From Stegostoma tigrinum (Eukaryota): a stretch of 64,000 nucleotides of DNA. The notes under the pieces are model-generated. The model was not told the DNA's origin. It searched no databases and saw only the letters and a list, made by a program, of their open reading frames with translations. The stretch spans positions 96,021,187-96,085,186 of the forward strand of contig NC_081362.1 in assembly GCF_030684315.1 (NCBI RefSeq). Direction: 5' to 3'. The translations under genes and the position numbers were made by a program. Shown in pieces: positions 13,120 to 63,941 of this stretch; positions within the stretch are counted from its first letter, which is position 1; every line of letters starts with the position of its first letter.

Positions 13120-13475
13120 GATCATGAGTCACTGCATTCAAATGAAAAAAGTATTTAGGTATGATCAGGACAAATTTAATTTCATTTCATTGTCATTGAT
13201 TGGTGAATTACTTTCCGAGGACAGTCCCAATTACTCATGCCTTCCTCTTTTCGTGGTTTTTATTCAAGCTGTAACAACTGAATAGAGAAGTAGAGTGAAA
13301 TGCAGCCACGTCTGCAATATTGGCAGTGTCACAGCAAGGCAAAACAGCAAGGCATTTAGAATTCGAGAAATAAGTTCGCTTAATATGTCTGTTCACTTAA
13401 AATTCTCAACCCTGACTCTGATCCTCTGCCTCACAGTGGGTAAGTAAATGTTCAGGACTGGCTTTTCATTTTCAT
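13120..13475 (+). promoter_or_regulatory. Putative proximal promoter of the receptor gene (AP-1, PU.1/ETS, ISRE-like motifs)
   Basis: TGAGTCA at 13125-13131; CTTCCTCTTTT (reverse complement AAAAGAGGAAG, PU-box) at 13241-13251; TTTCATTTTC ISRE core at 13464-13473. All lie in unique sequence around exon 1. Short motifs like these can occur by chance. Confidence 0.35.
13385..13439 (+). CDS. Exon 1: signal peptide MSVHLKFSTLTLILCLTV(G)
   Basis: ATG with A at -3, hydrophobic core, donor G|GTAAGT at 13440. Phase 1 matches the V1 acceptor, giving the classic split leader (...TVG-RVDT|QTTLLQSP). Lies in a non-repetitive island. Its link to the V exons 24.5 kb away is inferred. Confidence 0.75.
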
Positions 13476-37200: not shown

Positions 37201-40200
37201 AGAGAGGGGGATGGGGTGAGGGTTCTGGAATAAATAGGGAGAGAGGGGGAGGCGGACCGAAGATGGAGAGAAAAGAAGATAGGTGGAGAGAGTATAGGTG
37301 GGGAGGTAGGGAGGGGATAGGTCAGTCCAGGGAAGACGGACAGGTCAAGGACGTGGGATGAGGTTAGTAAGTAGGAGATGGAGGTGCGGCTTGGGATGGG
37401 AGGAAGGGATGGGTGAGAGGAAGAACAGGTTAGGGAGGCAGAGACAGGTTGGACTGGTTTTGGGATGCAGTGGGTGGAGGGGAAGAGCTGGGCTGGTTGT
37501 GTGGTGCAGTGGGGGGAGGGGACGAACTGGGCTGGTTTTGGGATGCGGTGGGGGAAGGGGAGATTTTGAAACTGGTGAAGTCCACATTGATACCATTAGG
37601 CTGCAGGGTTCCCAGGCGGAATATGAGTTGCTGTTCCTGCAACCTTCGGGTGGCATAATTGTGGCAGTGCAGGAGGCCCATGATGGACATGTCATCAAGA
37701 GAATGGGAGGGGGAGTGGAAATGGTTTGCGACTGGGAGGTGCAGTTGTTTGTTGCGAACTGAGCGGAGGTGTTCTGCAAAGCGGTCCCCAGACCTGCCGA
37801 ATTCTGTTTTTGTTTACTTCAGATCTCCAGCACCGACAGTACTTTGTTTTAATTTTACATTTAAAATAAGTCGCCGATAAAACCAATGTTAACAACACAG
37901 AATATGTGTCTGTCAATGTTCAGGCATTTTGAGAACTGCTATGATTTGAAGGTGTTTATTATGTTCTAATCTCAGTTATTTTTGATTCACAGGTCGGGTA
38001 GATACACAGACAACTCTTCTCCAATCCCCTGAAGCTGTGACAGTGACTGAGGGTGGCACAGTGACATTTCGCTGTGATTTGCGAAGCAGCAATGCTGATT
38101 CCACTGTGAACAGATATGATCTACACTGGCACCATTCACGTGGTGGGCTGAAAATATTGAGTCATTATGTAAACGGCCGTGTTTACCGATCGAGAGGATT
38201 CTCTGAGCGGTTCCAGCTTTCCAGAAATGTAACCAGTAACAGTTACATTCTGACCATCAGAGACCTGAAGCTCACTGACAGCAACACCTACATCTGTGAG
38301 ATTTGGGGGAAGATCTATGGAAACGGAACCCGCCTGAATGTAACCAGTAAGTACTCTCTAATATTATATTAATTTTGTTCCAAATATAATGATTAAGTTA
38401 CCATCTCGCAAAGAAATGAATGTGACATCATCGTCACTTATACAGTAACAACAGCGGAAGTTATGGCCTCAGAACAGAGTAAAATTTGTGTTGAACTGAA
38501 CAAATGAGCATGTGAATGTGATACAACATCTTACACAGAGTTCAGTTAGTATTGCAGAAAAGGAGCAATGATCAGAATAAATGAAGCTGCCTGATTATGT
38601 GCGGACTTTGACCAGGATATACATAAAAAGCAAATACTTATTACCAAATGTGAATCCATTGATGAAACCTAATATATCTTGTGACTATACCCTACAATGA
38701 ACAACCTTGTCAGTTGTAAATAGGAAAAGTGGAATCATATTCCTCATCTACTGCACTGTTAAGAGACAGGGCTGCCTGGAAACTCTTTGCTAATGAGGTC
38801 TCTCTCTGTGGTTGGGGTATTTGAATGGAGTAGTCACAGGACATAGCACTCCAGAGGAGGCTGGGACCCAAAGAGGCAACAAGGTCAACCTACAAGGAGT
38901 CTGGAATCTGTGAGTTGAAAATGGACAACTTAAATAACCACTATAATATGAAGTATCAAACTGGCTGTAAATGCAATAACCTTAGAGTTTCACCCATTGG
39001 GGAAAATATATTGAACATTCAGGATGTTACTCATGATTTTCCAGTGGAAAATTCCTGTAGAAATTAGTTCTTGTACAGTTAACTCTAAATAGACAGAGAA
39101 GCTAAATCCCAAGGAAATAAAAATTGTTGTCTTTGGGAATTAATTGGGTGATGTGTGTAGGGAGCAGTTAAAGTCTTAAAAATCCAACTCCATCCCAAAC
39201 AAACTTTGCGCCCATCCCTTTCAGCTTGATTTGGCTCAGATGGTCAGTGGATGGCCAGTATGGTCCTGGAAGGCAAACTCTTCCTTTAAATATTACAGTG
39301 AGGTTGTGAGCCTTAGTGTTGCTCAGATCTACACCTTTAACTGTGGTCATCAGCTTTCCCAAGCCTCAGGAAAACTGACAGCAAGATCCCAGCCTGGACC
39401 TCAGTGGATCTGTGATGGCAGGGACTTCACACCCACCTTCCAGGAACATTGGGCTGTCTCATGAAAGGGCAACCGCAAACATGCAACCCAGGTCTCGAAG
39501 AGATCTCCACCCTTCCATAGCCCTCTTCCACCCACTCCTACATCACCAGCACCTGAAATCGGGCCCCAGCCATGTTGCCACCTGCAACTAATGCTGCCCA
39601 CCTTTCCAGGTCCCAATCCACCCCAACCCTCGTCCACACTGGGATTGTTGAAATTTCACCTCACCCTCCCTCTCAGCACTCTTTCAGGAGCAGGCTATGT
39701 CCCAGACCCCATCATCTCATACCCCTGCCCCCTCCAAAGCAACTGGAAATTAACCCTGGTGAAGCCACAAACACACTGTGCAGTTAAAACCTTTCCTCTG
39801 TGCTTCCCATAATTGTTGCATACCCCTCAATCACCACAGGTTCCACCCTGCATTCCCAAGGACCTCATAGATTCAAGAAAAAAACTAGGTAAAAGGTGAA
39901 AGGGTTACACTGTTAATCAAGCTTGAAGTCAAAACATTGAATGTTTCCAAGAAGGCGATAGATAAAGTTCTTTGAGCTAATGGGATCAAGGGATATAGGG
40001 AGAAAACAGGAACAAGAGACCGATTTTAGATGACCAGATGAATGTTGGAATGGGCTCAAAGGGCCAACTCCTAGTCCTAGTTTGTTCGTCTCTATAGCAT
40101 TGGTGCAACAACTGGAGACGCATTGTTCCAGGAGATCGTGATGTGGAATTGGTTTGAGTGCCGATGAGGAATAGCAAAGGAAAGATGTCACTCATTGCAG

Positions 40201-46200: not shown

Positions 46201-49200
46201 ACCACTAGGCCATTGTCTCCCTATTCATGAACAGGGACTGAGTCATTAGGAAATATGATGATGGTGTGGGGAGAAGACTGGGAAGATTCTGCAGTGACTG
46301 GGGATCAGGAGGGGAGACATATCAAGTTTGTGCATGAGGAGGAAGTGGCTGAACATCAGATCTTAATCTTCAAATTAGAGTAATCCATGAGATTTTCAGA
46401 TCAAGATGATTGATAACAGTTTGGGAGTTCACCCAAGGTAACATGAGCTGCTATGCTTCTCATTAAGTATTTGAGATTTTTAACAGGCTTCAGACTAGTT
46501 TTAATTTATTCTCACTTTTTCCCTTAAAAGTTGCAAATCCTCCGATTCTTCTCCAATCTCCGAGCCTGGAACGTGTCACCGAGGGTCACACTGCCCGGTT
46601 ACAGTGCACCATCAGGAACGCCGCAGTGACACGTACCGATGTTCACTGGTACTGGGAACAACCAGGGAATACCACGGAGTGGGTTTTAACACATGACGTG
46701 AGGAACATCACACAAAGGAGCCCAGGATTCACTGAGCGATTCCAGTCTTTCAGAGACTCCTCCAATAACAGCTTCATTCTGACCATCACAAACGTGCAGC
46801 CCAATGACACTGGGATCTATTATTGTAAAGTGTGGGGAGATATCAGTGGGAATGGATCCAAGCTGACTGTAACCGGTAAGTATATGAAAATTTATTTTAT
46901 GCAAAGCAGCTTCAAAATGGTGAAATCATTATCTTTACAACCCCAGTAGAGAGGAATCAGGACTGGAGATTGGGGTTTTGATGTTGTCAGCTTATTTCCG
47001 ACCCATATTCCATGGAGCTGTTACTTCTCCCTCAGAGTATGACAATGTGGAATTCATCTTCTGTAACAATGTCACCTCAGAACAGAATTGATCAGCTTCT
47101 CAAACTCAATGGAAATACTCAAAAGGAATAATTCACTTTGGCAGGTGGCAATTTATTGTCCATCCCTAGTTGTCCCTTGAGAGGATAGTGGTGAGCTGCC
47201 TTGTTGAACAGCTGCTGTCCAGGTGCTGTGGATTGACGTTAGGGAGGGAATTCCAGGGTTTTGATCCATCAACACTGAAGGAACAACAATATATTTCCAA
47301 GTCAGAATGGTGACTGTCTTGGAGGAGAACTTGCAAGAGTTGGTGTTCCCATTTATCTGCTGCCCTTAGCCATCCAGATGGATGTGTTCATGGGTTTGGA
47401 GGATGCTGTCTCAGGAGCCTTGGTGGATTTCTGCAGTGTATCTTGTAGATGGTACACACTGCTGCTACAGAGTGTTGGTGGTGGAGAGTGTGGATGTTGG
47501 TGGATGTGATGGCAATGGAGCAGGCTGCTTTGTCCTGGATAGTCTGCTACTATTCTGTCCTTCATGGCATTTCTGAATCATCTGTAAACTGAGAAGTTAC
47601 ACTTCTTATACCAAGTCAATGATATTTATTTATAATAAAAACAGAAATTGCTGGAGAAACTCAGCACGTCTGGCAACACATATAGAGAGAGAGGCAAAGT
47701 TAATGTTTCAAGCCCAACTTGCCTTGTTCAGAACCCAAAACATTAACTCTGTTTTTTCTTTCTCCACACATACTGTCAGATGTATCGGGTTTTTCCATCA
47801 CTTTCTGTTTTTATTTCAGTTTTCCAGAACCCACAGCAATTTGCATTTGTTCATCATTACAAACCTGGTCCTTGTCCCCTCTCCCTGTGAGCAGTATGAA
47901 CAATCTCTCTGAGTCTCTTTCTCTGTCCAACTATGCCTGAGGATGGGACAGCATACAGTTACAGCTCTCCACACACACACCTTGCATCACTACAGTGCAA
48001 CTCCTTTGCAAGTGATTCGCAGATTTGGAGATGTCTTATCCCAATTTTTCATGTCATTATGTTAACAATTAGATTGTTTATTCAGTAACACCTTTCACAA
48101 CCTTAGAGGGTCCCAGCATAGTTTACAACCCATGAGGTACATTGAAGTCATGAGTGGAGAAAATACACAGAAAGATCCAACAAACAAGCATTAAAATGAA
48201 TCGCCCCATCCCTGAACACTGACTGAAATCTTCTTTTGATCCTTGAATGATACCCTGGGAGTTTTTCACATCTTCCTGTCAGTACGGACTTGTTTTAACA
48301 CGACAGATCAGTGCTGGCTGTTCCAAACTCACTGTCTCTGTGCTGCTCTGGATGGTCCTAACGTCTGCTCAAACCTCAGGAGGGATGGGAATCCCATCAC
48401 CCTCCACCTCAGAGTCAGGATGCTCCCAATAAGCTTCAGCTGACAGAGTGCACCCTGTTGTACTGTTTCTGGTCCCTGACCTTAGAAAACATTGCATTAA
48501 ACAGCACGTGATGATTAAACCTTTCTGAGATTTTACTCAGATTTGAAAGGTGGAGTATTATATTTCTTTGTGTTAACCTCCGTCTGTTTTTCACACACAG
48601 ATCCATTGGCTGATCCAGTCCTCATTCAGTATCCAAGGTTCAGCAAGGTACCAGAGGGTGAAACTGTCGAGTTCCAGTGTGCCATGCACAATGCCAGTGT
48701 GAATGACACTGATGTCCACTGGCACTACCAGCAACCTGGCAGCAACAGGGAGTGGGTGATAAGCCAGTTTGAGAATGGCACCTTCACCAAGGCCCAGGGT
48801 TTCCATGATCGTGTTCATGCTTCCAGGAATGTTGGCAGTAACAGTTACATTCTGCGCCTTGTGAATGTGACTCTCAATGATAGTGCTGTGTACCACTGCA
48901 GTGTGTGGAGCTACATTTATGGAGCAGGGAGCCAGCTCAATGTAACTGGTAAGGCAATGGGAGGGAATGCTGGTAGCCTCACAGATCTGACTGGGAACTG
49001 TTCTACCTTCATACAGTAGAACAGATAGGTGGAAGCTTGTAATTTCATCCAACATGCCTCATGTCGGGGCATGAAATAGACAGTGGGAAGCTTGATTCCA
49101 GAGGGAAAATAGAAGGGTTGAATTGTGGAAATATGAGAAAGAATCGATGCTTTTTCTATCATCTATCAATCCAGCATTTATTGCTTGCCTCTTATCGTCT

Positions 49201-52200
49201 TATTGTCATTCAGTACGTGGCTGTGAGCTGCCTTTCTCCACATCGGCAGGTTTAAAGCTTTGATATCATGAGAATTTTGCTCAGCTGTTTCAGAGGGCAG
49301 GTCGGCCATAATTCTGGATTTGTATACCTGCCAGACTAAAGATTATAGATTGCTGTCCATCAATGATATTAGTGAACCTGATGCCTGCTTTTATTCAGTC
49401 ATGAGACATGGGCATCACTTGCTGGGCCAGCATTTATTTCCCATCCCTATTTGCCCCTTGAGAAGGCAATAGTGAGCTGCCTCATTGATCCACTGCAGTC
49501 CATTCCATGTCGGTAGACTCCAATACCGTTTGGGAAGGAATACCAGGATATTGACCCAGCGACACGGAAGAACAACAATATATCCCAACAAGCCAGGATT
49601 GTGAGTGGCTTGGAGGGGAACTTGGAGAGGGTGGTGACTTCTTATGTATTTGCTGCCCTTGTCCTTCTCAGTGGAAGTGGGTGTGGATTTGGAAGGTCCT
49701 GTCTAAGGAACCATGTTGAATTTGTACAGTGCACCTTGTAGACAGTACACACTGCAGAGACAGAGCGTTGGTGGTGGAGTGAGTGGACACTTAAGGTGGT
49801 GGATGGGATAATGAAGAAGTGAGCTGTGTTGTCTTGGATGCTGTTAAACTTCTTGAGTGATATTAAAGCCTTCTTTATCCGATTAAATACAGTGTTTTCC
49901 ATCATACCCATGACTTGATCCTTGTGGATAGTGGACACGCTTGGGGAAGTCAGGAGGGGAGGTTTTCCTTGGAAGGTTGCCAACCTTTCATCTGTCCTTG
50001 TAGCCACTGTTTGATTTTTTTATACTCCTTCTTCAAATCCATTATGAAGAAAAATTTGGTCTCGAAACGCCAACTCTGATTCTCAGCCCACTGATGCTGC
50101 CAGTCTTGTTGAATTTCTCCGGAGCTTTCTGTTTGATTTCAGATTTCTGGAAATCCATGGTATTTTGCTTTCACCAACATGATTAAGAGCCCATGTGCAC
50201 ATTGGTGGCATGTTGTTTAGCATTGCTGCCTCACTGCCGCATGGACCCAGTTCGATTCTACTCTCGAGTGACACGTTCCAGGCTCGGAGTTTGCACATTG
50301 TGTCCATGTCTGCATGGCCTTTCTTCATGTACTCCAGTTTCCTCCCACTGTCCAAAGATGTGCAGGTTCGGTGTGATGGACGTGCCAAATTGCCCACAGT
50401 GTCCAGGGTTATGCAGGATAAGTGGATTAGCCATGGAAAATGCAAGTTCACAGGAATTGGGTAGGGGGTAGGTCTGAATTGGATGTTCTTTGAAGGGCCG
50501 GTGTACATTTGATGGGCTGAATGGCCTCCTTCCTTATTACAAGTGTTCTCTGCTTCTCAAGACTGAGACGATTAAAAAGTTCATTTTTTTCGTCTCCAGG
50601 ACAATGCAGGATCTGCGCTCCAGATGGGGGATAACACAGTACCTGACATGGTTCCATGCTTTGGGTACAGGTTTTGTTTGAAATGTGAGCTGTACAAGCA
50701 TCTGGCTGGGAGCAGCCGTGTTATGTGGACATCCCAGGATGCAGCTGTGAGGGAACCTCCCGGCATTGAGCTGAGTGAGTTGTGAACATGAGCTCTGTTT
50801 CTCTCTCCACAGGTACTGCCAGACCTGCTGAGTTTCTCCAACATTCCCGGTTTGTACCTCACATTCTTTCAGGTTTTTGATGACACAGGAGGAGATAGTC
50901 AGACCTTTTGGGATGGCACTGCCAATGAATTTCTGTTTACCTTTCAGAAAGTTCACTGATTTCCAAAACTATTCTTGTTGGTTTTTCTCAGGTAATTACA
51001 GAGAGATTCCAATTGCAGGTGAATCTGTCAAGGAAGTCATGTGACTTATGGGTGCCATTTTGATGGGTTCTGCATGTGCATTTTAAAGACAGATTAGTTT
51101 TCTTCCTTAATTGTTTAGATTTATTTCTGTGCATTCATGACAAGGTAATGCATGCTGACTGACTTTTCAACTAAAATATTGAGGACAATTTTCAGATTGC
51201 AGTCTAGTTTGTACATTGTTTATATTCTTGCCTTAAAGTTGCAAATCCCCCAGTCCTTCTCCAGTCTCCGAGCCTGGAACGTGTCACTGAGGGTCACACT
51301 GCCCGGTTACAGTGCACCATGAGGAATGCTGCAGTGACACACACCGATATTCACTGGTACCAGGAGCAACTGGGGAACAACAAAACATGGGTTTTAACAC
51401 ATGACGTGAGGAACAACACACAATGGAGCCCAGGATTGACTGAGCGATTCCAGTCTTCCAGAGACCCCTCCAATAACAGCTTCATTCTGACCATCACAAA
51501 TGTGCAGCCAAATGACACTGGGGTCTATTACTGTAAAGTGTGGGGAGATATCAATGGGAATGGAACCCTGCTGTCTGTAATGGGTAAGTCCTGTTTACAT
51601 GATACTGACTGACTTCTGATTGTGTGGCGGATGGAGAGGCTGGGATGGGGATCATTAAATCATATTTACTTTAAACTTCTAATTCATGGCTTAATTTTTA
51701 TTTAAATTCTCAAAAAGAATCTTTTTTCACTTGAGCTTTACAGTGTTTACAACAGATTTAATCAGCAATTGTCAATCACTCTTTCTACTCTTTTGGGGGA
51801 GATTTCTGACTGGCTGATTGTTGGTGGAATATTCCAAATTATTATTTGCCAAATGAAAATCTCCAGAGCCCAGTGATCCCCTTCTCATTTATTGGGGTGG
51901 GTGTGATGAGCCCATTTGTCTGTTGAGGGGACACTTACCAGGAAGGAGCAGTGTAGGCTGTGTCTCTTCATGCATATCTGACAGAGGGTTTTGAACTGAG
52001 GCTTCCTGAGGGAGGGAGCCAGCTGGTTCAGAGACTCTGGCCAATTCTCAACCTGTTCAGCAAGGCCCACTCTCAGTGCGGCTGCTTCAAGACAGCCACT
52101 TGACAGATGGTCTTTGTCACAAGGGGAGAATGTGTCAGTGATAACCCACAGTCTCCCATTCCTTGATCTGAAGGATGTCTTGTTGGTGAACCTTGCTGAG

Positions 52201-53072: not shown

Positions 53073-56000
53073 TGCAATTTTACCACAATTCACATTCCTC
53101 AGTAACATGCAGCACCCTGTGATTATAGGTGCAAGCGTGACAGTTCAATATGTCACTGCAGAATTGTTTTGATGGAGAACTGGTCACTTGCTGTGAAGGA
53201 GGGCGAAAGGTTGCAACCATGTTTTAACGGATGGCAGCAGGTGATCAGTGCGCTCTCATAGGATTCAAAGAACAAAGAAAATTACAGCACAGGAACAGGC
53301 TCTTCGGCCCTCTAAGCCTGCGCTGATCAGATCGTCTGTCTAACCTGTCATCTATTTTCTAACAGTCTGTGTCCATTTGCTCCCTGCCCATCCACGTACC
53401 TGTCCAGATACATCTTAAAAGACACTATCGTGTCTGCGTCGACCACCTCTGCTGGCAAAACGTTCCAGGCACCACCACCCTCTGTGTAAAGAACTTTCCA
53501 CGCATATCTCCCTTAAACTTTCCTCCTCTCACTTTGAACTCATGACCCCCAGTAACTGAGTATCCCACTTCTGGGAAAAAAACTTTTTGCTATCCACCCT
53601 GTCTGTACCCCTCATGATTTTGTAGACCTCAATCAGGTCCCCCCCCCACCTCAATCATTGTCTTTCTAATCAAAATAATCCTCATCTACTCAACGTTTCT
53701 TCATAGCTAGTGCCCTCCATAGCAGGCAACATCTTGGTGACCCTCCTCTGCACATTCTCCAAAGTATCCACATCCTTTTGATAATGTGGCGACCAGAACT
53801 GTACGCGGTGTTCCAAATGTGGTCAAAACGAAGTCCTATACAACTGTAACATGTCCTGCCAACTCTTGTACTCAATACCCCGTCCGATGAAGGAAAGCAT
53901 GCCGTATGCCTTCTTGACCACCCTATTGACCTGCGTTGTCACCTTCAGGGAACAATGGACCTGAACACCCAGATCTCCCTGAACATCAATTTCCCAGGAC
54001 TTTTCCATTTACTGTATAGTTTGCTCTTGACGTGGATCTTCCAAAATGCATCACCTCTCATTTGCCCGGATTGAACTCCACCTGCCATTTATCTGCCCAA
54101 CTCTCCAGTCTATCTATATTCTGCTGTAATCTCTGACAGTCCCCTTCACTATCTGCTACTCCACCAATCTTTGTGCCATCTGCAAACTTGCTGATCAGAC
54201 CACCTACACCTTCCTCCAGATCATTTACGTATATCACAAGCAACAGTGGTCCCAGCACAGATCCCTGTGGAACACCACTGGTCACAGTTCTCCAATTTGA
54301 AAAAAACCCTTCCACTATTACTCTCTGTCTCCTGTTGCCTAGCCAGCTTTTTATCCATCTAGCTAGTGCACCTGGGAGCCCAGGTGACTTCACTTTCTCC
54401 ATCAGCCTGCCATGGAGAACCTTATCAAATGCCTTATTTAACTCCATTCAGTGCTTTTCCAATTGACATCAATGTTTCAGGTGAGGGGAGTGAAAGCACG
54501 CTGGCTAAATTCACAGATGTGACCTGTCAGGAATTATATTGTGAAGAAGATATAATATGGTCACAGGTGAACATAAATCAATTGAGACATTGGGTATTAA
54601 TGCCACAGATGGAGTATGATGAGAGAAAATGTGAAGTTCTTCACTTTGTCAGAAAAAAAATCAAAAAGGTAGGGCATTACATAAAGAGGAGAAGACTGCC
54701 AGCACTGAGAAAAATCTTTGTGTTCTTGCGCAGGAGTCAAAGAAATTTGGCTTCCAGGTACATGCTATAATCGAGAAGGTTATTGGGATGTTGTCTTATT
54801 ACGAGAGGAATTGAATATAAGAACTTGGGAGCAAGAGTAGGCCATTAAGCCCCTCAGTTATGCTCTACCATTTAATATGATCATGGCTGATCTCATCTCA
54901 GTCTCAACTCCACTTTTCTGCCTGTTCTCCATAGCTGTTTAATCTGTTACTCATTAAAATTCTGCCTGTCTCCTTCTTAAATTTACCCAATGTCCCAGCA
55001 TCCATCAAAATCTGCGGGACTAAATTCCACAGGTTCATGACCCTTTAAGTGAAGTAATTTCTCCTCATCTCTGTTTCAAATTTACTGCCCCTTACCCTGA
55101 ACGAATTCTAAATTGTCGCACAAAGGGAAACATTCTGTCTACAACTGGGATAGCAAGTCCTGCAGATGCTGGAGTCAGAGATAACATGGTGTGACGCTGG
55201 AGGAACACAGCAGGCCAAGGCTCATCAGAAGAATGGGAAAGATGATGTTTCACATCAGGACCCTTCTTCAGAAATAGGGAGAGGGAAGGGAGCTCTGAAA
55301 TAAATAGAGAGAGAGATAGGTCGGGCTGGAGAAGGTAGGTGGGATGGTGACAGGTGAGTGCAGGTAGGGAGTGGTGGGGATTGTTCAGTGGGGTTGGAGG
55401 GACAGAAAGGTGGGAGAGAAGATGGACAGGTTGTGTCAGGTCAAGGAGGGGGATGAGAGGGAGGGTTGATCATGGGATAAGGCTGGGGGTGGGGAAATGT
55501 TGAAACTTCTAAAATCCATGTTTAGGCCATTGGGTTTTTGGCTCCCGAGGCGGAACGTGAGTTGCTGCTCCTCCAGCTTGCGGGTTTGGAGTACATCCCT
55601 CAGGACAGTCCTATCCTCACATTGGGCCTGAAATGAAGCTTACATTAAGAGAGAACTCTCTGTCTCCATTACTCTGGTATGAAACCAACTGTTCCAAAAG
55701 ACTGAAATCCATGTGTTCACTTGATTTATGGCACTGATGTGAAATTAAACTTCAGTTTTTGGTATCTTACAGAGCAATCTGAAGAGCTGTGGTTAATGAT
55801 AATCATTGGCGTTGCCCTGGCATTTGTTGTCTTACTCTGCATCTTTCTCATCATACTTCTTTATGTGAAGAAATGGGCCTGTTTTCAACACCGATCAAAA
55901 CCAGAGGGGTAATTACAATCACATTCCCTATCTCATGGGATTATAATCTTGAATTAAATATTGATGGGTGGAGGGATGACATCAGCACTTTGGCAATGGT

Positions 56001-59000
56001 GTCAAAAGGCATTTTCCCACTCACAGAGTCCTAATGAATATGAAATTATACAGACCTATGATGCATTGCAATTTATCAGATGGCTATCAGAGTTTTGAAT
56101 TTCAAAAGAAGTGTCTACAAATTTCGTAGTTCACCTTCCACTTGTCAGTCAGTGTTTTCCCCTTTTCCCAGCCGTGTCCTTCTTTAGAACACTCTCTCTC
56201 CGTCAGTATTTTTATTTACTCATAGGAAATGCATCTCACTGGCTGGTCCAGCATTTACTGCCTCATCCCCAGCTGCCCTTGAGAAGGTGGTGATGAGGTG
56301 CCTTCTTGAACTGTTGCAGGCCATGTGCTTTGGGTTAACACACAATGTCCTTAGGGAGGGAATTCCAAGATTGTTACTCAGCAACACTGGAGGAATGGTT
56401 ATATTTCCCAAGTCAGGATGGTGAGTGGCTTTGAGGGAAACTTGCAGGAGGTAGTGTTCCCATATATCTGATGCTCTTGTCATTCTAGAACCTGCAAAGT
56501 GCTGTATAAGATCACTCCAACTTATTTGTGCAGAGAATGTACACAAGAGAACTTTACACATTTGTAATCCATAGAAATGAATGTTAAAGATGATGATCAC
56601 AAGTGTCCATGCGACAAACCTCTCACCTCAGTCAGGGGGTGTGAGCCCATGTTTTCAGCCGGAATCACCCCAAAGGAAATGTGTTGTTTATTCCTGCTAT
56701 TCGGTTTCTGGGAGCAGTGGCAGGTGATTGTTATATTTGAACATCAGTTCTTATTTATAATTTTTGATAGACTGCCCCAAACCATTTCTGTGTAAAATGT
56801 CTGTCAAAGTTGCTGGCAGTGCTGTTGGGTCCTGTACCCGTGCATATTGATCAATCAGAAGCTCCTGTTATAGTCAACATTCAGAACAGTGACCAGCAAA
56901 TCCCAACTGCTGAAATGTCAATTTCCAAAATTTTTACTCAGCCCATCATGTTCATGCTATCTGAAAGCGAATGCAGCCTGGGATGATGACTCCTGAGAGA
57001 CACATGGTGGTCTCTGAGAGCTGTTTCATGACATTATTGCAACATCCAGGAGAAAGGTCTCTGCACAATGAATTTATATTCCTGACCTTGTCCACAAGAC
57101 ACAGCCTGAACAAAACTGACCCCAGCACTGACTCAACTGTCAGAAATTCCTGGGATCTTAGCTGCTAACATGAAATTCTGCTTTATCTGAAGGAATAGTT
57201 GGTCAATCTCAGATGCATCCTTCAGTTCTTGGGTCATTTACTGTAAATAAGGCGGGGGGGCATTCATCCAATCAAGACTTCACTAGCTCACTGTGGATCA
57301 ATCTATGTCGATGTAACTCCCTACTCTATCCCATAATCTTGCAAGATCATTTGCCTCAAGTGCCCATCCAATTTCTTTATGAAATCATTCATTCTCTCCC
57401 TTTCCAACTTCCTCACAGGCACCAATGTCTGGGTCATTTCCATGTTTAGATAAAGGTTTTCCTCACATTTGCCCTCCCTTTCTCATCCAAATCCTTCAAT
57501 CTGTTTCTGCCAGTCCCTGTCCCATCAGCCAATGGAAATAGTTTCAGTTTGTTTAAACTAAACCTGTCATGATGAGCAAGGGAGAAATAGAGAGATAAGA
57601 GAATGGATGAAGGGTCTAGGCCCGAAACATCAGTTTTTGTGCTCCTGAGATGCTGCTTGGCCTGCTGTGTTCATCCAGCTCCACACTTTGTTATTAAGGG
57701 AGAAATGGACACCAGTTGGCCCCTTCCAACATGTGCATGGTTTATTAGACAGAATAAGAGGCTTTCTCCATCACTTTGACGTTCTTTCCTACTTCTGGAG
57801 TCCCAATATTAAATCACTGACTTTATGTTTCTGCACCATTTCAAACAGGACCTCTGAAGAAGAGCTTAACACGGTGTATGCAACAGTCAGTGGTAAGGCA
57901 TTTCAATACCCACACTGATGACCGCCCAAATGACATTTGTTGTTTAACACTAATTATGAAACATTATGAGATGACTTTTGTACCCATGTTATTTTCAACC
58001 ACTCATCACCTGAGTGAAGACATCAGAAAGACAAGGATGAGGGACAAAGCAAAACTAGAACAGAGGAGCAAGAGAAGACCATTCCCTCTCAAGTAACTCT
58101 CCAACAGTGCGGCACTCCCTCAGCACTGACTCTCTGACAGTGGGGCACTCCCTCAGTACTGACCCTCCAGCAATACAGCAGTCCCTCGGTACTGACCCTC
58201 GGACAATGAGACGCAAACTTAGTACTGACCTTCTGACAGTGTGGCACTCTGTTAGTACTGACCCTTGGACAGTATGGCACTCTGTTAGTACTGACCCTTG
58301 GACAGTGTGGCACTCTGTTACTACTGACACTCTAGCAGTGTGGCACTCTGTTAGTACTGACCCTCCAGCAGTATGGCACTCTGTTAGTACTGACCCTTGG
58401 ACAGTGTGGCACTCTGTTACTACTGACACTCTAGCAGTGTGGCACTCTGTTAGTACTGACCCTCCAGCAGTGTGGCACTCTGTTAGTACTGACCCTTGGA
58501 CAGTGTGGCACTCTGTTACTACTGACCCTCCAGCAGTGTGGCACTCTGTTAGCACTGACCCTTGGACAGTGTGGCACTCTGTTAGTACTGACCCTCCAGC
58601 AGTGTGGCACTCTGTTAGTACTGACCCTTGGACAGTGTGGCACTCTGTTAGTACTGACCCTTGGACAGTGTGGCACTCTGTTACTACTGACCCTCCAGCA
58701 GTGTGGCACTCTGTTAGTACTGACCCTTGGACAGTGTGGCACTCTGTTAGTACTGACCCTTGGACAGTGTGGCACTCTGTTAGTACTGACCCTCCAGCAG
58801 TGTGGCACTCTGTTAGTACTGACCCTTGGACAGTGTGGCACTCTGTTAGTACTGACCCTTGGACAGTGTGGCACTCTGTTAGTACTGACCCTCCAGCAGT
58901 GTGGCACTCTGTTAGTACTGACCCTTGGACAGTGTGGCACTCTGTTAGTACTGACCCTCCAGCAGTGTGGCAGTCTGTTAGTACTGACCCTTGGACAGTG

Positions 59001-62000
59001 TGGCACTCTGTTAGTACTGACCCTTGGACAGTGTGGCACTCTGTTAGTACTGACCCTTGGACAGTGTGGCACTCTGTTAGTACTGACCCTCCAGCAGTGT
59101 GGCACTCTGTTAGTACTGACCCTTGGACAGTGTGGCACTCTGTTAGTACTGACCCTTGGACAGTGTGGCACTCTGTTAGTACTGACCCTCCAGCAGTGTG
59201 GCACTCTGTTAGTACTGACCCTTGGACAGTGTGGCACTCTGTTAGTACTGACCCTTGGACAGTGTGGCACTCTGTTAGTACTGACCCTCCAGCAGTGTGG
59301 CACTCTGTTAGTACTGACCCTTGGACAGTATGGCACTCTGTTAGTACTGACCCTTGGACAGTGTGGTGCTCTGTTCGTACTGAACTTCTGACAGTTTGGC
59401 ACACCCTCAGCACGGACCATCCAAATACACAGCTAGTCATCAGAGATTCATTCGAACTTAATATTTTTGTCAACAATCCTGCTTTCCTGTCATTATCAGT
59501 CAGAAATAACAGCGATAATAAACTCAGAAATTCTTATCTTATTTCAGCTGAAGTGCAGAATAAACAAATGACTGCGTCCCCTCCTCCAGTAAGTATTGAA
59601 CATAAGCCTTTTACTATTATCATCATGATATGTTGGCCATTCTGTCTTCATAATCCTGTCTGGTTTGACTTCATTTGATTAGATATTAGCAATGCTGTAG
59701 TGAGGGAGTCAGTCTTAGTGGGAAACAGCCTCTGCGTGTGTTCCCATAATCATACTGAGTCACTATTTAACCTGTGACAGCTTGAAAAGAAGCATTAATC
59801 ACAGTGTCACAGAATTGTTACAATGCAGAGGGGGCCATTTGGCCCACTCAGCTTGCAATAGCTCTTCAAACAAACATTGTTACTGTGTGCCAATCAGCTT
59901 TCTATCCATATCTTTCCATATTATCCCAAATAATCATTCAATGCCCCTCTAATTAGCTCAATAGAACCTACCTCTACCACATTTCAAGACAGTGCATTTC
60001 AGACCCTGACCATGCACTGTGTGAAAAACATTTTTCCTCACATCACTCTTGCTTCACTTACAAATCACTTTAGAACTACTCCCTCTCATTCTTGTACAAT
60101 CGAGTGAATTCTCCCTGTTCCAATCTTTCTTATCTCTGAGATGACTTCCTCCAGGGTTTGTTAAAGTCACTGCCTTCCCCAGCGCTGGCCTCCTCTCTGT
60201 TGTTTGGCTCTCCCTTATTGCACAGCTTATTGGGAGAATTTCGAAGTGTTTCCCTTAAGGATGGTTTTTCTTTATTCCTTCGCATGAAGAGGGCATCACC
60301 AGTTAGCTCAGTGTTTTTTACCCCTTACCAAAACTTGGGACATTGTGTTTAGTTCTGGTCACCTCATTATTGGAAAAATGTGGAAGCTTTAGAGAGGGTG
60401 CAGAGAAGATTTACCAGGATGCTGCCTGGACTCGAGGGCAGGTCTTATGAGGAAAGGTTGAGGGAGATAGGGCTTTCTCTCATTTGAGCGAAGAAGGATG
60501 AGAGGTGACTTGATAGAGGTGTACAAGATGATGAGCGGTATAGATAGAGTGGATAGTCAGAGACCTTTTCCCAGGGCGGAAATGACTATTATGAGGGGGC
60601 ATAATTTTAAGATAATTAGAGGAAGGTACGGGGGAGATGTCAGAGGTAGGTTCTTCACACAGAGACTGGTGGGCAAGTGGAATGCGCTGCCGGCAGTGGT
60701 AGTGGAGTCAGATATTTTGGAGACTTTTAAGTGACTCTTGAATAGGCACATGGAGGGTGGTAAAATGAAGGGTATGCAGTGTAGATTGATCTTAGTAGGA
60801 TAACAGTTTGGCACAACATTGTGGGCTGAAGGGCCTGTGCTGTGCTGTATGTTCTATGTCCTATGTTCTAAAACTGTGCATGGGAATGTGGTGGGGAACT
60901 GTGTGCGCAGCAAATGAGCACTGAGTCCCATACCAGGTTTTCACATAAGTATTTTTGTTTCCATGAAATGGTTTATATTTATTTTAACTTCGGCCATAGA
61001 TTGCAGCCAATGTCTTAGCTGCTCAGGTGATAATTCTTTAGAAGGTGCGAATCCAGTTGAAGTGTGTTTTCTCACACTTAGAAGGTTCAGTATGAGGTCA
61101 GCCTGTAGAATTTGATTTGTACTGTCTTTGGCTTAGATAGCTGATATTTAAACTATATAAGTGATTATTAGTCAGGAAGGGAATTAAGGATTATGAGGGG
61201 AAAGGCAGGAAAGTCAAGTTGAGGATTATTGAATCAACAATAATCTCATTGAATGGCAGAACAGCTTTGATGGGCTGAATAGCATACTTCTGCTCCTATG
61301 TCTTGTGATCTGAAAATTTGTCGAGGTGATGAAAAAATCTGAAATCCTTCACTTCCCTGTCTCCCTGTAATGATCATCTCACTATCCCAATTCTGATTTC
61401 CTACTTGCTTGAGCTCCCTGACTGGAACCTATTGTGCCCTCACCCTCAGTTTATTCTTGTCCTCAGTTCATCCTCCAGCTGGTGTATCTTAACAGTGTTT
61501 GGGCAGGACACCTATGTGCCTAATTGAGCTGAAAGCTCTCTCGAGTCTCCACATTGCAGAATCTTGTCTAATAGAAGATGCTAATGTTCATGTTCGACAG
61601 CACTTGCTGGATAATCCAGAATGTGTGAGGAATTTCACTAACAGTTTAGGAGTATTCACCAGGCCTGCAGCGCATATTCATAGATGGGACACATTCTTTT
61701 GAAGCCAAAAGGATGTCCATACTCTGTACCTAGTACAAATTAACAAGGTACATGATATCTATTGCTGATTCATTGACCAATCTGCTTCAACCTGATTGGT
61801 TTAAAATTTAACAAAGCCTGGCAGTTGACTGTCATTCAATACTGATGAGTGCATTCTCTGTGGCAGCCCTTCTAACAATCAGAGTGCAGGTACCAATCAA
61901 TCCACACTGTCCTCTCATGTAGCCTCAGTATTGGCTCCCCCAGATTTCTATTCTTGTGAAATGTCCTGGATGAGAAACTTGGACAAAATGAGTCCTTAAT

Positions 62001-62662
62001 TAGCAATTGTGCTCCTGAGATGCTGCTTGGCCTGCTGTGTTCAACCAGCTCCACACTTTGTTATCTTGGAAGCTTTTGTGCTCCTGGGATGCTGCTTGGC
62101 CTGCTGTGTTCATCCAGCTTTACACTTTGTTATCTTGGAAGCTTTTGTGCTCCTGAGATGCTGCTTGGCCTACTGTGTTCATCCATCTTCACACTTTGTT
62201 ACCTTGGATTCTCCAGCATCTGCAGTTCCCATTATCACTCCTTAATTAGCAATACTCAGGTTCTGTACCTGCCAGACGACAATTTGAACTGCCCTTCCCG
62301 ACCAGTGCCCCAGCTGACACTGCTTTGAAGGTTTGTGGGTTCATGAATCAGAAGTTCCTAGAGCTGCTCAAACAACTGTAGCAGAAAGACTGAAGGGACT
62401 TCTACATCCATGAGGTCAGACCCAGACTTTTTCCCTGGTGAGGGGTGAAGAGTTTGCCCTGTGGTGTAGTATGTGGGGAGGTTAGGTGCAGGAGGGGTTT
62501 GCTACCGGCTGTTGTGAAAATCCTGTGTCTTTCATTGTGTTTCAGTTGGAGGAAGGGGAGTTGTATTATGCTGATATCCAGTTCTTCCGAAAGAAAACTG
62601 AACAGCCAGCTACAGTGGTCACTGAGGAGTCAACCGAGTACGCTGCCATCAAATATACATAG
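13385..62662 (+). CDS. Whole spliced gene model: type I membrane IgSF receptor with 4 germline-joined VJ-type domains, TM and ITSM/ITIM/ITSM tail (594 aa; exons 13385-13439, 37993-38346, 46531-46875, 48601-48948, 51239-51583, 55773-55908, 57849-57892, 59548-59588, 62546-62662)
   Basis: All 8 introns are GT-AG with matching phases (1,1,1,1,1,2,1,0). Exon lengths 55+354+345+348+345+136+44+41+117 = 1785 nt = 595 codons with a single terminal TAG. The domain order is coherent. Confidence 0.85.
17050..17390 (-). mobile_element. HE1/V-SINE
   Basis: Reverse complement begins ggcatggtggctccatggttagcattgctgcctcacagtgcc and continues into the V-domain core. Confidence 0.8.
17663..17690 (-). ncRNA. Minimal type I hammerhead ribozyme core (PLE-associated)
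   Basis: Reverse complement CTGATGA-A-GGGTCTAGGCCC-GAAAC-GTC. Confidence 0.75.
17830..17857 (+). ncRNA. Minimal type I hammerhead ribozyme core (PLE-associated)
   Basis: CTGATGA...GGG-TCTAGG-CCC...GAAACGTC. Confidence 0.75.
18852..18879 (+). ncRNA. Minimal type I hammerhead ribozyme core (PLE-associated)
   Basis: Same 28-nt core as 17830-17857. Confidence 0.7.
19035..19750 (+). mobile_element. CR1 3' fragment interrupted by HE1 SINE (19168-19480, minus strand)
   Basis: RLRGDLIEVYKIMR. The SINE reverse complement starts gggtggcacagtggctcagtggttagcactgc and ends ...gtagggaatctaat. Confidence 0.88.
23483..24485 (-). mobile_element. Young 5'-truncated CR1 LINE with open RT C-terminal frame
   Basis: 317-aa ORF with VPQASVLGPLLF, KFADDTK and RGDLIEVYKIM; (TTCTATG)n tail at 23483-23505. 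Confidence 0.95.
24795..25430 (+). mobile_element. CR1 3' fragment
   Basis: KGNFFTQWVVPAWNELPEEVVEA; ACTCTATG tail. Confidence 0.85.
25740..26030 (+). mobile_element. HE1/V-SINE
   Basis: ggcagcatggtggtacagtgg...ccaaagatgtgca...gggcctgtttcc. Confidence 0.8.
26440..29265 (+). mobile_element. Decayed CR1 ORF2 interrupted by a Penelope element (27497-28566, minus) and a SINE (28810-29160)
   Basis: DKSPKPD and VTSDVPQGSV motifs. TSD ATGATTGTGGAG at 27485-27496 and 28567-28578. Confidence 0.88.
27497..28566 (-). mobile_element. Penelope-like element (Neptune-type) with Cys-rich linker and GIY-YIG
   Basis: FTCTSINVIYCI...LLYIGETKRRLGDRFEEHL; 12-bp TSD. Confidence 0.9.
29935..30395 (+). mobile_element. 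Penelope 3' pLTR fragment, near-identical to the 3' part of the 17559-18940 element
   Basis: Matches 18589-18850 almost base for base; hammerhead core at 30305-30332. Confidence 0.9.
30305..30332 (+). ncRNA. Minimal type I hammerhead ribozyme core (PLE-associated)
   Basis: CTGATGAAGGGTCTAGGCCCGAAACGTC. Confidence 0.75.
30480..35045 (+). mobile_element. Ancient, heavily decayed full-length CR1 with nested SINEs/PLE fragments
   Basis: Traces of the esterase (~30500-30790), APE (~31520-32000) and RT (EPVDILYLDFQE at ~34070). Confidence 0.7.
35075..36925 (+). mobile_element. Gypsy LTR retrotransposon remnant (LTR, degenerate tRNA-Pro PBS, gag fragment)
   Basis: TGGGCGCTCATGTCCTGGAT at ~36146 resembles TGGGGGCTCGTCCGGGAT. 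An E/R-rich coiled coil is followed by the gag motif LTKFDENFVEAIFISFEKSAKQMNWP. LTR boundaries are approximate. Confidence 0.6.
37075..37792 (-). mobile_element. Penelope 3' fragment ~200 bp upstream of the V1 exon
   Basis: Reverse complement of the GIY-YIG C-terminus and pLTR seen at 18375-18940. Confidence 0.9.
37993..38346 (+). CDS. Exon 2: Ig V-set domain 1 with germline J-like G strand
   Basis: Acceptor ttcacag|, donor |gtaagt. Encodes QTTLLQSPEAVTVTEGGTVTFRC...LHW...GFSERFQLSRNVTSNSYILTIRDLKLTDSNTYICEIWGKIYGNGTRLNVT, with canonical C23/W41/C104 and GxG. Confidence 0.95.
40090..41560 (+). mobile_element. Decayed CR1 ORF2 fragments
   Basis: APE/RT traces; FRRVRGVLIEVYQIL. Confidence 0.75.
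42847..44174. mobile_element. Penelope-like element (Poseidon-type GIY-YIG) in inverted head-to-head configuration with 14-bp TSD; nested Neptune pLTR piece at 43065-43142
   Basis: NVIYKILCKNCDKHYIGQTGRKLATRIHEHQ on the + arm and a partly deleted copy on the - arm. AACCTGATGACACT at 42833-42846 and 44175-44188. Nested TSD CAAATCAA at 43057-43064 and 43143-43150. Confidence 0.9.
44061..44094 (+). ncRNA. Minimal hammerhead ribozyme core (second PLE family)
   Basis: CTGATGA-T-GTTACC-TAGATT-GGTGAT-GAAAC-GTC; stem II GUUACC/GGUGAU. Confidence 0.7.
44395..45790 (-). mobile_element. CR1 RT/3' fragment
   Basis: QGSIMGPLLFVIF, SQFAADTK, RLRGDF. Confidence 0.88.
46531..46875 (+). CDS. Exon 3: Ig V-set domain 2 (VJ-joined)
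   Basis: Acceptor ttttcccttaaaag|, donor |gtaagt. Encodes ANPPILLQSPSLERVTEGHTARLQC...VHWY...DTGIYYCKVWGDISGNGSKLTVT. Confidence 0.95.
47140..47560 (-). mobile_element. LINE 3' fragment (same family as 10590-11170)
   Basis: Reverse-complement homology; further copies at 49400-50010, 56225-56490 and 20630-20800. Confidence 0.8.
48601..48948 (+). CDS. Exon 4: Ig V-set domain 3 (VJ-joined)
   Basis: Acceptor tttttcacacacag|, donor |gtaagg. Encodes PLADPVLIQYPRFSKVPEGETVEFQC...VHWHYQQPG...DSAVYHCSVWSYIYGAGSQLNVT. Confidence 0.95.
49400..50010 (-). mobile_element. LINE 3' fragment (same family as 10590-11170)
   Basis: KKFNSIQDNTA...SLHHQRSVSAVCTVYKVHC. Confidence 0.8.
50200..50540 (+). mobile_element. 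HE1/V-SINE
   Basis: ggagtttgcacatt...gtttcctcccactgtccaaagatgtgcaggtt core. Confidence 0.8.
51239..51583 (+). CDS. Exon 5: Ig V-set domain 4 (VJ-joined), paralogue of domain 2
   Basis: Acceptor ttcttgccttaaag|, donor |gtaagt. Encodes ANPPVLLQSPSLERVTEGHTARLQC...DTGVYYCKVWGDINGNGTLLSVM. Confidence 0.95.
52989..53070 (+). repeat. (GA)n compound microsatellite
   Basis: Seen directly in the sequence. Confidence 0.95.
53268..54435 (-). mobile_element. CR1 RT/3' fragment
   Basis: KAFDKVLHGRL, VTSGVPQGSVLGPLL, SKFADGTK. Confidence 0.92.
55160..55590 (-). mobile_element. Penelope 3' fragment
   Basis: Homologous to the 27500-27980 region. Confidence 0.75.
55773..55908 (+). CDS. Exon 6: transmembrane exon (EQSEELWLMIIIGVALAFVVLLCIFLIILLYVKKWACFQHRSKPEG)
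   Basis: Acceptor tatcttacag|, phase 1 in. About 26-residue uncharged hydrophobic helix followed by a KK stop-transfer signal. Donor |gtaatt, phase 2. Confidence 0.9.
57849..57892 (+). CDS. Exon 7: cytoplasmic exon with ITSM (TSEEELNTVYATVS)
   Basis: Acceptor catttcaaacag|, phase 2 in; donor |gtaagg, phase 1 out. Contains a TxYxxV motif preceded by acidic residues. Confidence 0.8.
58095..59420. repeat. 33-bp minisatellite (~40 units) in intron 7
   Basis: Unit GTGTGGCACTCTGTTAGTACTGAC[CCTTGGACA|CCTCCAGCA]; 11-aa periodicity in the ORF track. Confidence 0.97.
59548..59588 (+). CDS. Exon 8: short cytoplasmic exon (AEVQNKQMTASPPP)
   Basis: Acceptor ttcttatcttatttcag|, donor |gtaagt. Its phase 1 in / phase 0 out is exactly what is needed to join exon 7 to exon 9. 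Confidence 0.75.
60335..60870 (+). mobile_element. CR1 3' fragment
   Basis: MRGDLIEVYKMM...RFFTQRLV; TTCTATG tail. Confidence 0.9.
62008..62238 (+). mobile_element. Tandem (69-bp period, x3) Penelope terminal fragment with 15-bp TSD
   Basis: TCCTTAATTAGCAAT at 61993-62007 and 62239-62253; TGTGCTCCTG recurs at 62008, 62077 and 62146. Confidence 0.9.
62546..62662 (+). CDS. Exon 9 (terminal coding): ITIM LYYADI + ITSM-like TEYAAI (LEEGELYYADIQFFRKKTEQPATVVTEESTEYAAIKYT*)
   Basis: Acceptor ttcattgtgtttcag|, phase 0, TAG at 62660-62662. The ELxYAxI...TEYxxI layout is typical of terminal exons of inhibitory IgSF receptors such as CD33-related Siglecs and NITRs. Confidence 0.88.
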   Translation: MEEGELYYADIQFFRKKTEQPATVVTEESTEYAAIKYT

Positions 62663-63941
62663 TGACGAGCAATCAGTTCTTCAGCAAGTAATGAAGAGCA
62701 GTCTTTGCTGCCATTAACTCCAAAACCAGCAGAACGAAGGACAGTCAATCATCACAATTACTTATTGATATTTCTGCTTGATAATTATTCCAGAATTTGC
62801 ATGGTGCAGCTTCCTGGCAGAGTGAAGTCTCTGGGTAGTGAATCCATAAGGTGACCAGATTTTAAATAGCAAGAAACCAGGGTGAGTTTAATGGGCATGG
62901 GAAAGTTGGGCATTGCTGAGCTGATTGTTACCACATTGGGTGAACAGTGCAAAGAATCTCAAGGTTAGGCATAGAAATTGGAGTGGGTGGGAAACAGGGG
63001 GAAATAGTTATGTCATGACACTTTTTGGAATATCTTCAGCTGGGGTTCTCTGCTGCAGAAAGTTTTGAAGCTAAAACATTAACTATTTTCAAGATGGAGT
63101 TAGACATAATTCTTGGGGCTAAAGGGATCAAAAGGCATGGGGGCAGGGAAAGCAAGAACAGGGTTGTGAGTTTGACGATCAGCCATCATCATATTGAATG
63201 GCAGATAGGCTTGAAGGGCCACTCCTGTTTTCTCTTTCTCTGGCAGGGGTGTGGTGAGGAGTAGGGAGCGAGGCTGACTATTGGCAGGGAGGATACAGGG
63301 TTCGCTGTGTACAGTGCAACGTGAAGTAATAAGGGTTTCCTTGGAGAGAAACAAACATGTCACACTGACTTTTTCTGAAGTCCTGGTTTACACTCTTAAC
63401 TAAGGAGAGGTGAGAACTGAGTTATTTTAACTATTTTCTGGAAATTGTCAGGAACCCAGAAGACTTTAGAGAAACCAGGACAGTCCCTTAGGAAGCCTGG
63501 GAATCTGGTCACTCCCTGAGCCCACCAACAGCATCATCTGTTAGGATAGTGAGCCTAGTAGAAGCCAAACAGGCCTCCTGTTTAACAAACGTAGCAGGAA
63601 ATTCTCCCTTGTTAAACTTGACAAAATGAAACTGTCCTGGTGGCCAACAACAGCAGAATTCTGGACTCCTGAACCTTGTTCACATGCTTTCCCATGGAAG
63701 GTTCCATTGGACTAGTCTTCGTCATTGCTCATTAACAGAGAAGCAGTGAGCTGATTTGAGAAGAATGACTGTCAGCCATTTCAGTGCCTCATGTAACTGC
63801 ATCAAACAAAATAGAAAGCACTTTGGAGCAGAAATCTTAACAAATTGAAAATTTACTCAAGGCACTTTGGAACGACAAGGATTTTATTTTTATTCAAGTG
63901 CTTACAGCAGGACAGCTAACTGAGAAATAGTGACAAATCAA

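Follow-up and report, generated by a model that had tools for sequence, protein, structure and literature searches.

The window, a stretch of 64,000 nucleotides from the zebra shark Stegostoma tigrinum (G000:C11:96,021,187-96,085,186), encodes a predicted type I receptor with four V domains, XP_059504760.1. Judged from its sequence, it is probably an inhibitory member of a paired-receptor family of cartilaginous fishes and would act as a brake through SHP-1 or SHP-2. As an ITIM-ITSM module the cytoplasmic tail is ordinary; the actual find is the family to which it belongs. A preliminary description of this DNA covered the tail and missed both the paired family and the antibody-like ectodomain.

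Gene structure and predicted product

Nine exons on the plus strand join into one open frame of 594 amino acids according to a splice-site check and translation. The product is identical, letter for letter, to the zebra shark RefSeq model XP_059504760.1, which carries the automatic name of a SIRP-like protein ("PTPN substrate 1-like"). It consists of a leader, four single-exon VJ-type Ig domains, an uncharged transmembrane (TM) helix and three tyrosine motifs. Exon 1 (13385..13439) encodes the signal peptide as a phase-1 split leader and corresponds to the N-terminus of XP_059504760.1. VJ-type V-set domains 1 to 3 are encoded by exon 2 (37993..38346; Pfam V-set E 2e-13), exon 3 (46531..46875; E 1e-18) and exon 4 (48601..48948; E 9e-16), all delimited by splice sites. 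Domain 4, encoded by exon 5 (51239..51583; E 2e-20), is 82% identical to domain 2. Between the leader and the TM exon, every exon border is in phase 1.

The remainder of the protein is encoded by exon 6 (55773..55908), exon 7 (57849..57892, 44 nt), exon 8 (59548..59588, 41 nt) and the coding part of exon 9 (62546..62662), also on the plus strand. Each of these exons is preceded by an AG acceptor, the first three are followed by a GT donor, and the frame ends at a TAG codon (62660-62662). The four-exon spliced tail proposed in the preliminary description is in frame and agrees with the RefSeq model. Exon 6 was delimited by splice sites, a structure model and a residue scan. The TM core that it encodes contains no D, E, K or R, with Cys505 inside the helix and Cys519 just past it in the juxtamembrane region, as had been noted earlier; both cysteines are predicted palmitoylation sites. 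The uncharged TM implies that the receptor does not couple to an adaptor. The proximal ITSM-type motif, the SLAM-like TVY538ATV (57871..57888), does lie on its own 44-nt exon as described, and exon 8 serves as a spacer. Exon 9 contains the ITIM LYY564ADI (62561..62578) and the distal ITSM TEY588AAI (62633..62650), followed by the stop codon. An AlphaFold model comprised four Ig domains, a helix at residues 486-524 and a disordered tail (mean pLDDT 69, pTM 0.34). Fold search returned generic multi-V constructs and pIgR alone, with low TM-scores.

Among the RefSeq isoforms, one lacks the TM exon and is predicted to be a soluble four-domain form, and others drop V3 or V4 in frame (P0108, P0022, P0034). 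Isoform X2 (P0008) has an alternative N-terminus from window position 37082 onward, a repeat-like stretch without a signal peptide. The start of this peptide recurs at 62232 on the minus strand, and the alternative N-terminus is likely a model artefact. The first intron is 24 kb long and includes open frames at 23574-24536 and 17846-18734, presumably resembling LINE reverse-transcriptase and Penelope-type fragments. A 33-bp minisatellite of about 36 copies (58219-59402) lies in the intron between exons 7 and 8 and creates spurious long ORFs on both strands.

Transcript support

No RNA run from Stegostoma tigrinum was present among the runs listed. The runs used here come from a related shark, and their RNA status is a guess of the tool. 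In two of them, one contig each starts to match exactly at 62546, preceded by 127 and 222 unmatched letters. In a third run, which holds most of the window as DNA, a contig spans 62218-63300 unbroken. Since the two contigs break exactly at the acceptor that the DNA-like contig crosses, splicing into exon 9 is backed indirectly. The same two contigs mark the start of a likely 3′ UTR (62663..63047, plus strand), whose end is not fixed. Read depth rises locally over the 41-nt exon 8 in two runs. The related-shark contigs show five differences within the coding part, and the motifs stay intact. No exon-exon joint of the tail was found among the joints listed in the run comparisons, in lists that stopped short of 304 and 535 further joints. 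Skipping of exon 7 would bring a stop codon right behind the TM exon and yield a tailless receptor, so that this exon is not an in-frame cassette, while skipping of exon 8 would leave Y538 alone of the three tyrosines. Neither kind of skipped transcript was seen among the related-shark run data that were inspected.

Conservation of the tyrosine motifs

At least two ITSMs together with one ITIM arose by chance in 13 of 200,000 composition-preserving shuffles of the 80-residue tail. A search with the second V domain (V2) collected 106 proteins, and every named one was from sharks and rays. The tail type of XP_059504760.1 was shared by 36 proteins representing 25 distinct tails; after three truncated models were dropped, 22 complete tails from 17 species were compared. 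All of these sequences come from annotation models, and they were taken as orthologues on the strength of their tail type.

The distal TxYxx(I/V) motif was kept in all 22 tails from the 17 shark and ray species, and so were the middle Tyr, its Ala at +1 and its Phe at +5. The middle and distal tyrosines were separated by 23-24 residues in all 22 tails (24 in XP_059504760.1). The residues around the middle Tyr fitted the strict ITIM consensus in 14 tails, a number that rises to 19 when Met is also accepted at −2; at +3, Thr is present in three sawshark copies. In contrast, the proximal Tyr was kept in 18 tails, and the complete proximal ITSM was intact in 14, from 11 of the 17 species, sharks and rays alike. 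Heptranchias, Pristis, Narcine and Rhinoraja have another residue in place of this Tyr, and Leucoraja, Hypanus and two of the four Pristiophorus copies lack Thr(-2). The proximal-to-middle spacing varies from 24 to 33 residues (26 for Tyr538-Tyr564). These counts suggest that the terminal ITIM-ITSM pair is fixed and the proximal site dispensable. The preliminary description had proposed to check all three tyrosines in orthologues: the middle and distal ones are invariant, whereas Tyr538 is replaced in four species and its Thr(-2) in two more and in some copies of a seventh, so that for the proximal motif the refuting outcome named there is partly realized. In 19 of the 22 tails the pY-1 residue of the distal motif is Glu, and the bamboo and epaulette shark orthologues have the sequence TEYATI at this motif. 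The earlier remark that TEYAAI differs by one residue from the TEYATI of PD-1 agrees with the PD-1 consensus (PMC12151841).

Predicted function of the cytoplasmic tail

ITIMs are defined as (S/I/V/L)xYxx(I/V/L) and ITSMs as TxYxx(V/I) (PMC12151841; PMC8999077). SHPs are activated by bivalent binding to motifs about 25 residues apart, and the paired tyrosines of PD-1 (Y223/Y248) and BTLA (Y257/Y282) are separated by 25 residues (PMC8999077). The zebra shark protein shows the features by which inhibitory immunoreceptors are recognized in sequence, namely ITIM and ITSM consensus motifs in the tail, an uncharged TM and a spacing of about 25 residues. With both terminal tyrosines and their 23-24 residue spacing conserved in 22 of 22 tails, the inhibitory receptor with a PD-1/Siglec-like pair that was originally proposed is supported by the sequence. 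The binding sites of SHP-1 and SHP-2 are conserved to sharks (PMC12151841), from which source, rather than from this genome, the presence of the two phosphatases in shark was taken.

In the mechanism that we propose, a ligand would cluster the receptor, and Src-family kinases would then phosphorylate Tyr564 and Tyr588. With 24 residues between them, the two phosphotyrosines could fill both SH2 domains of either phosphatase, SHP-1 or SHP-2. In an ITIM, Ala at pY+1 promotes SHP-1 binding and Phe at pY+5 helps binding of the SHP-2 SH2 domain (PMC12151841). BTLA, with the motifs IVYASL and TEYASI, prefers SHP-1 (PMC8999077), and the Ala of the shark ITIM may favour SHP-1 as in BTLA. The recruited phosphatase would damp the signals of ITAM receptors, including those of ITAM-pattern members of the receptor's own family. 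Tyr538 would be a third site that the receptor can do without; it may recruit SAP/EAT-2 or form a second SHP docking pair with Tyr564. Switching by SAP or EAT-2 would be accessory at most.

A family of paired receptors in cartilaginous fishes

A genome search with V2 gave 77 matches, 53 of which lie in a 1.7-Mb cluster on the same contig (C11, 96.06-97.78 Mb); 18 of these 53 contain stops. A GULO-type gene lies at 95.86 Mb on C11, and a search for PLAC8 synteny came back blank and was uninformative. Family members have one to nine V domains and several tail types, including the type of XP_059504760.1, a related type with degenerate ITIM-like motifs, a type with YEN plus YxxL-x7-YxxL/I, and short YEN types. 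In 21 proteins of the family, which come from 12 species and include P0068 on C11, the tail ends in the ITAM-pattern motif YxxL-x7-YxxL/I. Charged TM cores occur in two of the 67 distinct cores in the family, the other 65 being uncharged. Because ITAM-pattern tails stand in place of the ITIM-ITSM tail in these 21 members, the family is a paired-receptor family, with related ectodomains, opposite tails and one cluster; the activating role of the ITAM-pattern tails is a prediction.

The family reaches the elephant shark Callorhinchus milii, as found in a search of 1.84 billion representatives, of which 20 of 150 matches were named, and in a further search. No bony-vertebrate member was present among the 20 named matches. 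The elephant-shark family models examined stop just after the TM. Two additional Cys occupy the junction strand of many C. milii family domains (P0146, P0151, P0261, P0262), which sets these apart from the members in sharks and rays. A family V exon at L009:5260-9897 (G000:C11:97.36 Mb) continues into an open frame of 1,546 amino acids with Asn/Gly/Ser-rich repeats, perhaps a long stalk, and P0098 and P0085 may be similar. Three family loci with known locus numbers were not among the bamboo-shark cell-type markers listed in the part of the PMC11372145 supplement that was available. In the same material, a candidate member is LOC122553189, an uncharacterized bamboo-shark gene whose number adjoins that of the family gene LOC122553190; it is a marker of myeloid cells (36% vs 3.5%) and of HSCs. 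A description of this family was not found in open-access full texts; subscription work on shark NCR3, the primordial immune complex, UrIg, and innate receptors and VJ domains may mention it.

Alternative readings of the tail

A different main function, a SLAM-like switch in which an inhibitory output becomes an activating one once SAP or EAT-2 binds the proximal ITSM, the distal ITSM or both, seems rather unlikely to us. The preliminary description had suggested such switching through SAP-family adaptors, and part of this suggestion stands. TVYATV fits TxYxx(V/I) with the hydrophobic pY-1 that is tied to SAP binding and needed for the SLAM switch (PMC12151841), and the proximal motif is intact in most of the species. 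The zebra shark genome contains a SAP (SH2D1A)-like first exon (L105, G000:C18:29795460; E 4e-18 to 1d1z) and an EAT-2 (SH2D1B)-like first exon (L108, G000:C14:32296970; E 3e-13 to 5kaz), identified for exon 1 only, among 40 of 99 SH2 matches, and confirmed against PDB sequences, and their presence makes a switch possible. A sh2d1a-like gene marks a T-cell subset in bamboo shark, and SAP was reported in a review to bind phosphorylated PD-1 (PMC8999077). However, the proximal Tyr or Thr(-2) is lost in several genera while the terminal pair never changes. Glu at pY-1, the usual residue in the distal motif, makes a SLAM-type switch unlikely there (PMC12151841), which leaves Y538, with Val at pY-1, as the sole SLAM-like site. 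In addition, the 44-nt exon cannot be skipped in frame, and the family already has separate ITAM-pattern members.

We give little probability to an endocytic or adhesion receptor whose tyrosines act chiefly as sorting signals of the YxxPhi kind or as a scaffold for positive SHP-2/Ras signalling. All three motifs do match YxxPhi, the sorting signal for AP-2. SHP-2 is also able to signal positively (PMC8999077). Conservation nevertheless extends to Thr-2, Ala+1 and Phe+5, which lie outside YxxPhi, and to the spacing of 23-24 residues, as expected for tandem-SH2 binding, and the ITAM-pattern tails of the paralogues give the layout of paired receptors. Still more remote is the explanation that the tail is a prediction artefact or the gene a pseudogene. 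The cluster has many broken V exons, and a direct exon joint was absent from the joints listed, but nine exons with canonical splice sites keep the frame open, the same tail recurs in models from 17 species, and contigs of two runs break exactly at the exon 9 acceptor, by which this explanation is largely refuted. The phosphatase-recruiting brake is the reading that we consider likely.

Relationship of the V domains to sigma-2 light chains

Beyond the cluster, the best genome matches of V2 were V exons on contig C60. C1 exons follow these V exons, three of which have an RSS heptamer and three of which are joined to J, and a protein named Ig sigma-2 light chain is among their relatives. No RSS was found beside the V exons of the window. 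When 20 family domains, cut before the junction, were tested against 15 classes, sigma-2 V was the best class for all 20 (31-54% identity). An alignment of seven rows, the four window domains and three sigma-2 V exons, had 21 invariant columns. Slow evolution of sigma-2 could inflate this likeness.

Four trees joined most family domains with sigma-2 (support 93/91, 91/83, 91/83 and 94/89, the last under a site-mixture model; none at the starred level), and the backbone of a fifth tree was unresolved. In the latter and in the site-mixture tree, the group formed by the family and sigma-2 left out one or two divergent domains of the family type. The trees were based on 101 columns and included neither an intact IgL sigma V nor a bony-fish sigma-2 V; the smaller trees were made without IgNAR and long branches, and 20-25 of 63 rows were left out in the 91/83, 91/83 and 94/89 trees. 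Class labels in the trees other than sigma-2 are our own reading. An AU test did not reject the alternative in which all rearranging V domains were kept together without the family (p = 0.245). An earlier AU test did reject a broader constraint (p = 0.019), but we disregard it as unspecific, for that constraint pushed UrIg-like and further VJ rows outside as well.

One of the C60 genes (L015, G000:C60:3633697; P0115-P0117) is a germline-joined sigma-2 light chain with a junction of six residues, found in zebra, whale and bamboo shark with 78-90% identity. Of 212 distinct V domains of the family that the pattern picked up, 211 have the same 6-residue Cys-to-GxG length as this joined gene. Direct descent of the family from this gene was considered and rejected, because in five of five trees the gene falls within a sigma-2 clade to which the family does not belong, and because elephant shark already has the family. 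Since sigma-2 forms a clade of its own, today's joined gene with the short junction is not the source of the family.

RAG-type germline joining of shark light chains has been documented, with wholly joined type I genes in skate (PMC2193156 and PMC4279169), and this makes descent from some joined sigma-2 exon plausible. We tentatively suggest, with a little less than even confidence, that RAG joined a sigma-2 V and J in the germline before the split of sharks, rays and chimaeras, and that the exon left the Ig locus, gained a TM and tyrosine tails, and multiplied into a paired innate family. On the mirror reading, which we regard as unlikely, the family is the surviving sister of the VJ gene that RAG invaded. 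In terms of sequence, the family V domains may be antibody parts reused in innate sensors.

Other single-exon VJ genes were encountered. Two of them, L023:5184-5546 on G000:C282 and P0205 of bamboo shark, were placed close to sigma-2 and the family; P0205 carries a light-chain-like C domain that is divergent. At L076 (G000:C15:76.97 Mb) and L064 (G000:C44:25.54 Mb), VJ exons adjoin series of C1 exons and resemble two UrIg2-type genes and UrIg, respectively, and the UrIg2-type pair on C15 lies off the IgH/TCR contig C55.

Shark inhibitory receptors are poorly catalogued, and in this cluster a single ectodomain scaffold comes in predicted brake and trigger forms. Arguments about the origins of antigen receptors have drawn on non-rearranging VJ genes (PMC12227049 and PMC10751288). 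V domains that are up to 54% identical to one light-chain isotype mean either that an antibody V became an innate receptor or that an unusually close relative of the ancestor is at hand. If descent from a joined sigma-2 exon is true, an adaptive gene segment was recycled for innate recognition, and a VJ domain on a single exon would not by itself mark a receptor as a relic from before RAG.

Comparison with known receptors

Like BTLA and PD-1, XP_059504760.1 has a terminal ITIM-ITSM pair about 25 residues apart, and its TEYAAI is one residue away from the TEYASI of BTLA (PMC8999077) as well as from the PD-1 motif (PMC12151841). Members of the CD28 family, however, have a single V domain, whereas the shark receptor has four VJ domains and shares a multigene cluster with partners of the ITAM pattern. 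The shark gene for PD-1 is a different one and has already been identified (PMC12151841). The proximal TxYxxV with hydrophobic pY-1 and the SAP/EAT-2-like genes in the genome recall SLAM receptors (CD150, 2B4 and NTB-A). SLAM ectodomains are composed of V and C2 domains (PMC8999077), in contrast to the four canonical two-Cys VJ domains of the shark protein, in which the ITSM-type proximal site is dispensable.

CD33-related Siglecs, CEACAM, SIRP, CD300/MDIR and teleost NITR are all similar to the shark family in their clustered genes, variable domain number, birth and death of genes, and inhibitory and activating members. The shark family differs in that it seems to activate by an intrinsic ITAM-pattern tail, not a charged TM, and in that all its domains are joined VJ exons. 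Siglecs have one N-terminal V-set domain for sialic acid followed by C2 domains, whereas all four shark domains are two-Cys V-set domains and a C2 domain is absent. The V domain of CD300/MDIR/pIgR has two Cys pairs, compared with two Cys in each shark domain. The SIRP ectodomain consists of one V and two C1 domains; despite its RefSeq name, XP_059504760.1 has no C1 domain, and no C1-set match was found on C11 among 150 scored of 318 candidates. NCR3/NKp30 is an MHC-linked single VJ domain with a charged TM, unlike the shark receptor with its uncharged TM and four domains on a contig other than the C1-rich C44.

The V domains resemble those of sigma-2 (sigma-cart, NS5, type I) in the J-like G strand within the exon and the phase-1 exon borders. 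The shark receptor differs from a sigma-2 light chain in the absence of RSS and C1, in its location (C11 vs C60), and in its tandem domains, 19 N-glycan sequons, TM and signalling tail. It shares non-rearranging single-exon VJ domains with UrIg, UrIg2 and NCR3/NKp30 (PMC12227049). UrIg and UrIg2 are V plus C1 and NCR3 is MHC-linked, and their presumed homologues, whose labels are inferred, fall apart from the family in the trees. Its domain make-up departs from those of SLAM, the CD28 family, Siglecs, SIRP, CD300/MDIR, NCR3 and UrIg, but the shark receptor, as far as its sequence tells, likely works in the manner of brakes of the BTLA, PD-1 and Siglec type.
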